Shown here: positions 42,001 to 45,000 of the stretch, piece by piece
How the letters are laid out: every line of letters starts with the position of its first letter
Numbering within the stretch: the stretch's first letter is position 1
NCBI RefSeq assembly: GCF_003334765.1
Contig: NZ_QOWT01000030.1
Reading direction: 5' to 3' (one strand)
From: Escherichia coli
GTDB lineage: Bacteria; Pseudomonadota; Gammaproteobacteria; Enterobacterales; Enterobacteriaceae
Length of the DNA: 49,226 bases
Made by a program: the position numbers

Positions 42001-45000
42001 TTCCAGGTGCAGACAATGACTAACGAAGAACTACAGGCAATCGCATTATCCATGCTTGAGCGCCAGCGCGAAAAAGTACACCAGCAACGAGAGTCTTTGC
42101 TTAACCCATCTCCATTCACCAGGCCAAAACGATTGGAGCTTGAAGCATTCTTGGACAAATACCCACGGCGGCTTAAATCAGGCAAAACCAGACCACCAGG
42201 CTGATAGCTCACAGTTTGTTCTCCGATTCAATAAAACGGATAAGAACCATCAGCGCGGTAGCGTAAGGCACTACAGGCATTGCTTTACGAGTAATAACAA
42301 TGGATTTATCACCAGAAGACGCAAAGTTTTTACGAGAACTGCAACACCGTATGCTCAGAGAAGCCATTATCGAACAGCAAACGGGCATGAGCGCCATAGA
42401 CCCATTGCGATACAAACGGGCCTCATCTCCTTTAGTTGACGACAATTCCAATGCGGATAAAACACGTCCACCACACTGATTACATTTTTCATTAGCACAG
42501 TGGTGTGATGCAGCATACGAGGAAAACCGGATGAATGAGAACAAAATAAAAAGGCTGGAGCAACTGTTACAGGCACGCCAACGGGAGTTTGCCACTAAAT
42601 GGGGACGTGCCGCGCTGCCACATGAACGCCTAACCTATTTTCCACTTGAAGACCTCATTAAAAATAATGGCAAAAAAATCAGGTCTGATAAGAAACACTT
42701 CTTAGAATGCAATGAAGACAAATAACAACAATCTGCATATTGCCACCAACCACAGATGTGGCATCGTTATCAGCGCACTTGATTTTCTTTATATCCACTG
42801 ACGAGCTTGCCGGGGCACCTTTGTTTGCCGGTCATTCTGGTATCATGCAGATATTTACGGCGTACAAGCCCACTAGCATGACATTGTAATAAGGCCTGAG
42901 CCTAACGCTTTAATGTGTGTCATACACTCAGTGGCGTAATCGTTGACAATATGGTGCATGTAATCGTAAGCGTCCAGCGAAATCCATCTGGTCATAATCT
43001 GAAGCATCCGACAAAGTGGTGTCCACCAAATAAGTGATCTGCGCCCAATATCCTGAGCCGGAACTTTGACAAAGGCCAACGAAAAATGGGAGCGGATGTT
43101 ACAGAGTTCTCGGTACAGGGGAAAAGTGGTACCTGTCGCCAGTTCTCCGATCTGTTTAACCGGGAAATTATCTCCTACAGCTTGTCAGAAAGGTCGGTGA
43201 TGGAACATCGTTAATACGATGCTATACGATGCATTCACAGTGCCCGGCCAGAGGATGCCCCGTCGCTGCATATGGATCAGGGTTGGCAATATCGAATCGC
43301 AGGCTATAGGCAAAGTTAAAGCCCCATGGAGTAGCACAAAATATGCCGCACAAAGGAAACGGTCTGAATAACGCAGTGATGAAGAACTTCTTCAGCACAC
43401 TGCTAAAACGCATAGTGATCGAGCGCTGATTCTGGCGAACAACTGAACTAATACATCAGAATCTGCATTATGTTAAATAAATATAAAAAGATGGTTTAAA
43501 TACCCCGTTACTTTTGACTTACACTATACGGTATCGCATCGTTTAATATTCGCACCGGCCAGATTTTTATTTCTATTAGTTGTCACAATACTGAATGCGT
43601 ACGACCACAGTATTCTGGCTCCTGTGTGGTTATGCTTTAATTCTGCGTTCCGGGCAGATAAGCAGTTGCTTGCAGGAATCCTTCTTGTGTTAATGTCAGT
43701 TCCCCTTTTTACCAGTGCTGATTTCCACATTCCGTCCAACAGAGCTTATAGCCTTTCCCTGGATTATAGCATTGTCCGGCTGAAGTTCTTTTTGAATAAT
43801 AATAGAAGCACTGCTGGCAGATCCAGTCCGTTTTTCATAACCCACTGTACTGATAACCATAATCTAATCAGTAGAAATTGAGTCGAAAATAAGCACTACT
43901 CCATACAGGATAATTAGAGGTCAGTTTGATTATTCACAATTCATCATCAGCATTTTCTATTTCTGACGAAATCAATATGAAAATAACCATATATGATAAT
44001 TATTATAATAACGGCTTTAATTGGAATACATATATTACAACGTATTATATATAATTGGTATTCTGGGAACTATATTCTCAAAATACAGTAGAAACGAGGT
44101 ATGTTTCTGGTGGAAAGGACAGTGGGATTAAAAAGTAAGAATTGATAAAAAAAACGCCAGCAACACATAGTGCCGGCGGAGGGAATACCCCATGGAGAAA
44201 ATGTGATGCCTAGAGCATCATGAATATATAATTAAAAATAGTTAGCGTTGTCAATACTTTCACAAAAACAATTTTCGTAGTATAGAAAGATATTTTTATG
44301 CATGACCTACCTGAATTTGCTCCGGGTAGAGGTTATAAATAAAAATTGAATCACGACAAACACAATATTCATAGTATGGCGATGCCTACGCCAGCAAGAA
44401 TAGCGCCAATAATATTGGGAATATAATAGACACCAGACGCACAGGCATCTCACTCCTTAACAAACAACAATCAGGATATTTACTTTTACCAAGCTAACTG
44501 TTTACACCCAAAGTGCACACAATTAACCATTCAATAACAAATGGCAATATCCATAGCCATACGACTTTACCTTGTAATGTTCGGTATTTCTTTATAATTA
44601 TTCTGGGAAATCTATCATTTATTTTTAAAATCAAATTATCTTGTTGTTTAAAAATAAGTTCACATACTTTATCATCTTCTTCCGCCATCAACATCTCTGC
44701 ATACTTAAACATTTCAGAACGTTCCTTTAGCACAGAAGAGTAATTATATGTCCAGTTCCCAGGCAATAATGCTTATGGATATTTAATTCATAATTTAGAG
44801 AATATTTTGCAATAATATTTGGCAGTATTCAGAAATACCTGAAAAATCATACTATACAGCCCTAGGGAATGGATAAAGATTCTAACAAAGCATTTCAACA
44901 ATATATACTTGTTAAAAATCCATATCGAAATGCCGTTGCAGCATTAATATATGCCTCATTCATAAAATGTAAAAGAGCAAGCTCGTACCAGTAGGGGGAA

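Follow-up and report, generated by a model that had tools for sequence, protein, structure and literature searches.

Gram-negative phage-inducible chromosomal islands (PICIs) and satellites of the P4 type have been described in terms of a four-zone layout. In the passages of Mageeney et al. (2023, PMC10111431) that deal with this layout, Bro-network genes and immunity RNAs are located in the zone from alpA to the replication genes, and the C4 and isrK models are said to detect relatives of P4 CI and seqA. The same passages describe P4 Eta as beginning upstream of the constitutive immunity promoter, overlapping cI and being translationally coupled to an alpA homologue; citing Forti et al. (1999, J Bacteriol 181:5225), they state that the translation of eta prevents termination, so that late transcripts read through. 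In this study, we analysed a 49,226-nucleotide stretch of Escherichia coli DNA (contig NZ_QOWT01000030.1, assembly GCF_003334765.1), hereafter the window, and in particular an array of three small plus-strand open reading frames (ORFs) at 42007–42204 (ORF1), 42300–42479 (ORF2) and 42531–42725 (ORF3), all of which proved to be present. With moderate confidence, we interpret this array as a piece of the Bro/immunity zone that was left behind by a Gram-negative PICI/P4-like satellite and now lies in a mosaic E. coli pathogenicity island. An earlier note, made from the sequence alone, had taken the three ORFs for possible diverged duplicates of a small regulatory or anti-defence protein family downstream of alpA.

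Sensitive blastn searches detected diverged copies of window positions 41810–42439 and 42775–42965 in other E. coli genomes, with 74–78% identity. These copies sit in small integrative elements (those compared here are L002, L003, L006–L011, L019 and L020), in which the order on one strand is a tRNA or other att site, int, (a hypothetical gene), alpA, a Rha/AntA/Bro-N gene, the homologous region, an Icd-like gene, small genes, DUF4222, a DUF927/D5 primase, SSB, ProQ/FinO and PerC. In Rfam searches, the homologous region was directly followed by IsrK (RF01394) and by C4 antisense RNA (RF01695), the latter in one or two copies; in L007 and L008, no C4 or IsrK was found at the gathering threshold. 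The small genes have a fixed slot, bounded by the alpA–Bro/AntA genes and the immunity RNAs IsrK (seqA-like) and C4 (CI-like). In all these elements, the ORF1-like genes are opposite in strand to all other satellite genes and converge with the alpA operon. The order of int, alpA, Bro-network genes, C4 and IsrK, and primase and SSB in the relatives resembles that of the zone described in PMC10111431, and the fragment in the window corresponds by homology to the segment that the Bro/AntA gene and the IsrK promoter enclose. On the other hand, that paper calls most satellite genes unidirectional, and its gene-content passages mention no opposite-strand small genes in the zone; furthermore, the window differs in having neither immunity RNAs nor a primase beside the array and in its broken eta-like frame. 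The same RNA families, followed by an Icd-like gene, also recall immI of P1/P7 (c4 RNA, icd, ant) and IsrK, orf45 and anrP of Salmonella Gifsy-1, but these are neighbours of the slot rather than homologues of ORF1–3, and none of them is found in the window.

Each intact satellite carries one to three units (a small gene with its leader, see below), often together with a small ribbon-helix-helix gene. On the plus strand of the slot, L003 and L006 have ORF1 alone, and L002 has ORF1 followed by a 103-aa ORF that combines an ORF2-like N-terminus with an ORF1-like C-terminus. A 59-aa YlcI/YnfO-type ribbon-helix-helix gene precedes a 78-aa ORF1-type gene in L007, a 59-aa ribbon-helix-helix-like gene precedes ORF1 in L008, and in L009 and L010 ORF1 is followed by another ribbon-helix-helix gene and then a 58-aa ORF1-type gene. 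The ribbon-helix-helix-like genes were mapped to positions 5609–5788 of L007, 5764–5943 of L008, 4638–4943 of L020, 6388–6567 of L009 and 4623–4814 of L019, all on the plus strand, and are of the YlcI/YnfO type or of a FQFRLDPDL type. YlcI/YnfO (DUF3950) and other ribbon-helix-helix proteins of cryptic prophages thus occupy the same slot on the same strand, directly 5' of ORF1-type genes in L007, L008, L019 and L020; however, they are unrelated to ORF1–3 in sequence (0.2–0.6 bits in hidden Markov model (HMM) comparisons, no better than shuffles) and are absent from the window. Upstream of the ribbon-helix-helix-like gene of L008 there are the operator-like palindromes GTGTTAAACAC and GTGTTGAACAC.

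The placing of the array downstream of alpA in the earlier note did not survive this comparison. The alpA gene of the window (41178–41375), whose product shares approximately 41% identity with satellite AlpA, is on the minus strand and the three ORFs diverge from it; moreover, other copies of the array adjoin fbpC or IS66 remnants with no alpA nearby.

A family profile was searched with full HMMER against 1.84 billion cluster representatives (E ≤ 1e-3), and 20 proteins were obtained, all of 31–92 aa except one 676-aa repeat protein. The full-length members have variable N-termini and the common C-terminus [RK]FALE[DE]F[LV]xK[YH]PRR[LM]K-xx-K-x-RPP[GH]. The core of this motif is present in ORF1 (RLELEAFLDKYPRRLK), and the terminal K-x-RPP[GH] reads KTRPPG in ORF1 and KTRPPH in ORF2; ORF3 lacks it and ends in KKHFLECNEDK. 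The KTRPPG and KTRPPH endings pointed out in the earlier note are real and, because the motif is common to the full-length members, are a hallmark of the family, whose conserved C-terminus is RPPG/RPPH. As judged from these motifs, ORF1 is an intact member of an unnamed small-protein family. Its start is more likely the ATG at 42016 (42016–42204, 62 aa) than the GTG at 42007, from which 65 aa had been counted, since the homologues all start with MT(N/D)EE, the NCBI annotation pipeline (PGAP) uses the same start (WP_000180465.1, hypothetical protein), and an AGGTG lies 8 nt upstream. More diverged members (27–40% identity) are found in the same slot and on the same opposite strand in satellites L019 and L020.

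The plus frame of ORF1 gave Nei-Gojobori dN/dS values of 0.16–0.40 in 10 of 10 pairs (five lineages, DNA 75–87% identical), and third-position changes were approximately twice as frequent as first- and second-position changes. The plus frame is thus under purifying selection in the satellites. AlphaFold modelling with the family alignment gave a confident N-terminal helix (residues 3–29), a short helix over FALEAFLDKY (41–48) and a disordered basic tail, with a mean pLDDT of 78 and a pTM of 0.37; the description of the ORFs as charged and helix-prone therefore holds for ORF1. A Foldseek search of this model, two helices and a tail, against the PDB gave nothing meaningful, and when the family profile was searched against PDB sequences, no match fell below E = 0.3. 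No match to ORF1 was found by tblastn in a phage collection of 50,697 records. The name DUF3811, attached to ORF1 in one UniRef entry, was rejected because there was no Pfam match even at E ≤ 10; none of nine slot proteins matched the DUF3811 Pfam model at E ≤ 0.1. The intact relatives thus define a family of small, uncharacterised proteins whose genes have a constant location within the regulatory core of PICI/P4-like satellites of E. coli.

Pairwise BLASTP among ORF1–3 aligned only the KTRPP tails of ORF1 and ORF2 (8 residues, E = 0.029), and ORF3 matched neither. Because these matches were weak, relatedness was shown through intermediates and profiles. ORF2 (59 aa) is collinear with the 103-aa ORF of L002 (8310–8621), which has a full ORF1-type C-terminus, over 46 codons; exactly 99 nt are then absent in frame, and the alignment resumes at the RPP tail. 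The missing 99 nt contain the FALEDF..KYPRRLK core, and the gap lies between two short AAAAC repeats. The match of ORF2 to the family profile is confined to its last 9 residues. ORF2 is thus an internal deletion of a family member that has inherited its RPPH ending, and the common C-terminal ending of ORF1 and ORF2 reflects common descent, as indicated by the 103-aa relative and the family motif. ORF2 is probably a pseudogene-like remnant; in near-identical copies it has two nonsense codons (L013) or a 6-nt deletion (L016).

ORF3 (64 aa; PGAP WP_001004881.1, hypothetical protein) was left out of a family profile and nevertheless matched it over 44 columns (hhalign P = 1.3e-4); against an ORF1-family HMM, its score was equalled by only 2 of 2000 shuffles of the same composition. 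It has a recognisable FxLEDxI..K..KKIR core, which fits loosely (YFPLEDLIKNNGKKIR), and no RPPG end. At the DNA level it was found in 684 genomes, and no copy was less than 95% identical. From the profile comparison, ORF3 is a distant family member; it is confined to this island lineage and is frameshifted in L014. Tandem sets of such paralogues also occur in L002, L010 and L017. The earlier suggestion of diverged duplicates was therefore largely right, with ORF2 as a deletion derivative, ORF3 as a profile match and a common leader motif in front of all three. In L017, two tandem family members at 5001–5174 (57 aa) and 5284–5538 (84 aa), with RFALDDF and RFALEDY cores, lie outside any satellite and adjoin SIR2_2 and HTH_32 genes.

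The DNA just 5' of the ORF1 and ORF2 start codons is alike, and a hairpin is located approximately 45 nt 5' of the ATG of every ORF1-type gene, about 20–25 nt upstream of the Shine-Dalgarno sequence. Its 5' arm reads GCGC[CT]GT[GA]G and its 3' arm C[TG][AG]C[GA]GCGC; the loop between them is 9 nt long with AGG[TA]AC at its end, and ATTGCTTTAC follows the 3' arm. Among 11 distinct copies of this 9-bp hairpin, 91.8% of the cells were paired and three pairs were altered on both sides (e.g. C-G to T-A). The covariation score was reached by none of 500 shuffles, and slid controls fell to 21–58% paired. Thirteen cells are G.U pairs in the plus sense and would be C.A mismatches on the other strand, which assigns the hairpin to the plus-strand RNA. 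The hairpin is clear in the satellites, and its three copies in the window are recognisable yet eroded. Those of ORF1 (41968–41994) and ORF2 (42253–42278) are partly decayed, and the remnant in front of ORF3 (42494–42512, AGCACAGTGGTGTGATGCA) lacks the 3' half of the stem; all three are on the plus strand. Since a copy stands before each of the three ORFs, the repeated unit is a leader hairpin plus a small ORF, which supports the ORFs as copies of one unit. The leader hairpin was also considered as a target of the C4/IsrK loops and was rejected in that capacity, because no complementarity of at least 8 nt was found at the motif.

The non-coding leader/control region at 41810–42006 is approximately 75–77% identical to the satellites (blastn, alignment). 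The hexamer AGTATA at 41798–41803 (TATACT on the minus strand, to which it is assigned) is kept from the satellites, where it occupies positions −12 to −7 relative to the IsrK start (IsrK position from L002), and it looks like the −10 box of a P4 PLE-like immunity promoter. In addition, there is a perfect 9-bp palindrome, TGTGTTTTC-TTT-GAAAACACA, at 41864–41884 with a T-run on its minus-strand side, which is kept in L002, L003 and L006; L009 has a different hairpin. This palindrome could act as an operator or, lying ahead of the immunity promoter, could terminate minus-strand transcripts of the alpA operon.

The strand opposite to the small genes was also informative. One minus-strand frame was stop-free for 357–619 codons (1.1–1.9 kb) in 8 of 8 satellites, at L002 7397–9004, L003 7401–8825, L006 5698–6768, L007 5215–6609, L008 5364–6551, L009 5334–7190, L019 3875–5530 and L020 3785–5263, and the other five frames there contain 7–35 stops (Poisson P(0) of 4e-7 to 2e-12 per locus). 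The open frame starts at an ATG overlapping the stop codon of the upstream AntA/Rha gene by approximately 8 nt (L003, L006, L008 and L009) or is fused to the Rha/AntA N-terminal domain (L003 and L007). From there it runs antisense through the small plus-strand genes, IsrK and C4, and ends in an Icd-like domain (NF033153). It thus resembles P4 eta/kil in extending from the stop of an upstream AntA/Rha/alpA gene across the immunity promoter, seqA/IsrK and CI/C4 to an Icd-like cell-inhibitor end, but is 357–619 codons in length and has protein-coding genes antisense inside it, whereas P4 has no such genes, as judged from the tblastn search of the phage records with ORF1. P4 Eta reportedly comprises about 197–199 codons, so that the ORFs of the relatives would be two to three times longer. 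The wobble positions of the plus-strand ORFs and of the eta-like frame coincide. Both constraints can therefore coexist, which accounts for the antisense dN/dS being below 1 (0.24–0.88 in the same ten pairs) and makes the small genes within a stop-free eta-like ORF a case of two overlapping constraints on one DNA stretch. In L002, the minus-strand positions 7553–7852 gave a Pfam Phage_ASH match (E = 2.7e-20) that covers the translation of the IsrK (7761–7840) and C4 (7625–7712) RNA genes. At least in part, therefore, translated immunity-RNA genes seem to underlie the 'Ash protein family' as well as the 'ash family' and 'Icd-like' pseudogenes called by PGAP.

In the arrangement that we favour, each unit consists of a plus-strand leader hairpin, a Shine-Dalgarno sequence and a small gene for a protein of 56–92 aa, predicted to comprise a long helix at the N-terminus, a second, short one (FALEDF) and a basic tail that ends in RPPG/H, and the units lie antisense inside a long stop-free ORF resembling P4 eta. 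The plus-strand operon, in which an ORF1-type gene is often accompanied by a ribbon-helix-helix gene, would be divergent from the immunity-RNA promoter and convergent with alpA-driven read-through, which would give it the geometry of a switch component. The satellite small proteins and the antisense transcript would then belong to the lysogeny/induction switch, and the hairpin with its weak U-tract may serve as an attenuator or a ProQ/FinO site. The regulatory role proposed in the earlier note is thus plausible on the basis of position, and the small-protein family is a candidate extra component of this switch. A more specific and rather speculative version, which we regard as unlikely, is that one strand of the slot is kept open for eta-like translation, by which alpA-driven transcripts escape immunity-RNA termination, and the other encodes selected small proteins whose hairpin-bearing mRNA is completely antisense to the eta leader and maybe handled by ProQ/FinO. 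If true, the RNA-based immunity switch of the satellites would have a second layer, made up of protein and antisense RNA.

Several points weigh against the favoured interpretation. The family is narrow, its members are mostly close kin, and the selection estimates come from approximately five ORF1 lineages. Owing to the coincidence of the wobble positions, part of the low plus-frame dN/dS could reflect the constraint on the other strand. For ORF3, there is no diverged DNA homologue that could serve as an independent evolutionary test of its coding. A sigma-70 scan of the plus strand from 41750 to 42010 gave no convincing promoter, and hand inspection gave only weak candidates. No homologue of known function was obtained for ORF1–3 from Pfam, NCBIfam, PHROGs or PADLOC, nor for ORF1 or its family from the PDB sequence and Foldseek searches, and the regulatory role proposed is therefore read from position.

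Some of the same observations could be explained if the functional product were RNA, that is, if alpA-driven read-through of the eta-like mRNA were opposed by the plus-strand transcript, with its hairpins and the U-containing tract after them, in the role of an antisense or attenuator RNA (the ProQ/FinO protein of the satellite possibly taking part), and the peptides were secondary. The hairpin covaries, its G.U pairs are specific to the plus strand, and it recurs ahead of every unit. In L017, the equivalent position, directly upstream of the first family gene, is occupied by a canonical terminator hairpin with a T-run; moreover, the satellites encode a ProQ/FinO protein, and upstream of the immunity promoter the plus transcript would be complementary to the eta-like mRNA over its full length. 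However, the protein motif is conserved far beyond what pairing would need, and neither an Rfam family nor complementarity to the C4/IsrK loops was found. We therefore consider a purely RNA-based function unlikely.

A still less likely explanation is that the plus-strand ORFs are shadow ORFs, with the eta-like ORF as the sole selected feature and their conservation as a by-product. The antisense frame is stop-free in 8 of 8 satellites, has its wobble in common with the plus frame and itself shows dN/dS below 1, and PGAP often annotates the minus strand there. Nevertheless, the plus frame had the lower dN/dS in 10 of 10 pairs, and its translation outscored the antisense translation in 28 of 28 pairs. 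The L017 copy retains the plus ORF where the antisense frame is closed by 2 stops. These three results argue that the plus frame is the protein-coding one. The family motif is still present at 27–40% identity, a Shine-Dalgarno sequence and a plus-strand-specific hairpin precede each plus ORF, a YlcI/YnfO-family gene known from other contexts is found at the same antisense position, and the antisense translation, with its many Ser, Arg and Cys residues, looks unlike a protein.

It is equally doubtful that the small proteins are effectors against helper phages or host defence, the anti-defence role raised in the earlier note. Small charged proteins are typical of anti-defence and interference effectors, the content of the slot differs among satellites as in accessory hotspots, and one family member adjoins SIR2_2 and HTH_32 genes. 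On the other hand, nothing was found that points to anti-defence in PHROGs, Pfam, NCBIfam or the defence library PADLOC. The units lie in the regulatory core of the satellites beside ribbon-helix-helix genes and not in known P4 defence hotspots, the conserved cis leader suggests tight regulation, and the family is very narrow. The idea that the units are toxin-antitoxin modules, with a ribbon-helix-helix antitoxin directly 5' of an ORF1-type toxin as in L007, L008, L019 and L020 and one ribbon-helix-helix-type slot protein weakly matching the Pfam Rv0623-like antitoxin family (E = 0.035), is highly improbable, since ORF1-type genes have no such partner in L002, L003, L006 or the window, where no antitoxin or ribbon-helix-helix gene lies beside ORF1–3, the genes are 57–186 nt apart with a hairpin between them and no overlap, their order is reversed in L009 and L010, and no toxin family was matched.

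Consistent with the interpretation of the array as a stranded satellite fragment, the window copy is decayed. Its homology with the satellites ends at 41788–41810, at the predicted IsrK start, with the −10-like hexamer retained; past this breakpoint, unrelated DNA takes the place of IsrK/C4, followed by a frameshifted pseudogene (41441–41711), which lies between the array side and alpA, and then by alpA itself. The pseudogene was tried as the satellite gene between int and alpA, and this was rejected because tblastn gave no match. Rfam found no family in the window region, and C4 and IsrK were absent from 40500–44000 at E ≤ 1. On the other side of the array, what is left of the 5' part of the Bro/AntA-linked eta-like ORF occupies 42775–42983 (minus strand), next to a transposase fragment: blastn gave approximately 74% identity of 42775–42965 to L002, L003, L006 and L007, and tblastn with the long ORF of L007 matched 42806–42983. 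The eta-like frame itself is broken in the window, where pieces of 82, 90, 128, 39 and 68 codons in different frames are spread over 41768–43079 (minus strand), and every minus-strand frame has at least 10 stops in 41770–42965. Neither an integrase nor a primase gene has been annotated, whether in the 12 kb on each side of the array or in the rest of the window, and the combination of co-oriented int, alpA and primase with C4/IsrK that marks an intact satellite is not present. By its gene content, the array is a fragment and no longer a satellite.

Four copies of the array are 98–99% identical and differ in their left-hand contexts (IS1203, fbpC and IS66 remnants), and the changes in ORF1 among them are non-synonymous only. 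In L013 there are 8 substitutions per 564 nt in the ORFs and 11 per 592 nt in the spacers, and frameshifted variants of ORF1 exist in databases. The nonsense and frameshift variants, together with a substitution density in the ORFs about equal to that in the spacers, indicate that the array is near-neutral in islands. The ORFs of the window are probably non-functional relics, although ORF1 is perhaps still expressed. The window itself is therefore a modest finding, an ordinary decaying fragment whose ORFs were already deposited as hypothetical proteins: the exact sequences of ORF1, ORF2 and ORF3 are public under that name, each on at least 1000 contigs, although PGAP mostly leaves ORF2 unannotated. 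Three ORFs of about 60 aa in 719 nt are also unremarkable by themselves, since the surrounding 7 kb contain 73 ORFs of at least 30 aa.

The window is 99.9% identical to E. coli chromosomes, including those of O55:H7, O104:H4 and O157:H7, and represents a mosaic island located at a tRNA-Ser gene. Its cargo comprises a CP4-type cbtA/yeeU region, cah, the aerobactin genes, ibrAB, iha, espI and numerous insertion sequence (IS) remnants, and the array is flanked by IS remnants, a glycosyltransferase gene and iha. A scan of genome contigs with degenerate patterns gave, among the matches listed, one locus, on an E. coli-like contig of a metagenome-assembled genome. In L020, the satellite carrying family member P0019 adjoins gpW and GpA terminase genes (8422–10171) and may therefore belong to the helper-embedded PICIs reported in PMC10111431. 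At approximately 27900–35500 of the window, a few kb from the array, the annotation of L012 and L001 gives PerC-family, IbrB-like/PAPS reductase (ibrAB), AAA, POTRA and DUF4222 genes. Since PerC and DUF4222 are typical of the satellites, further satellite debris may lie scattered in the island.

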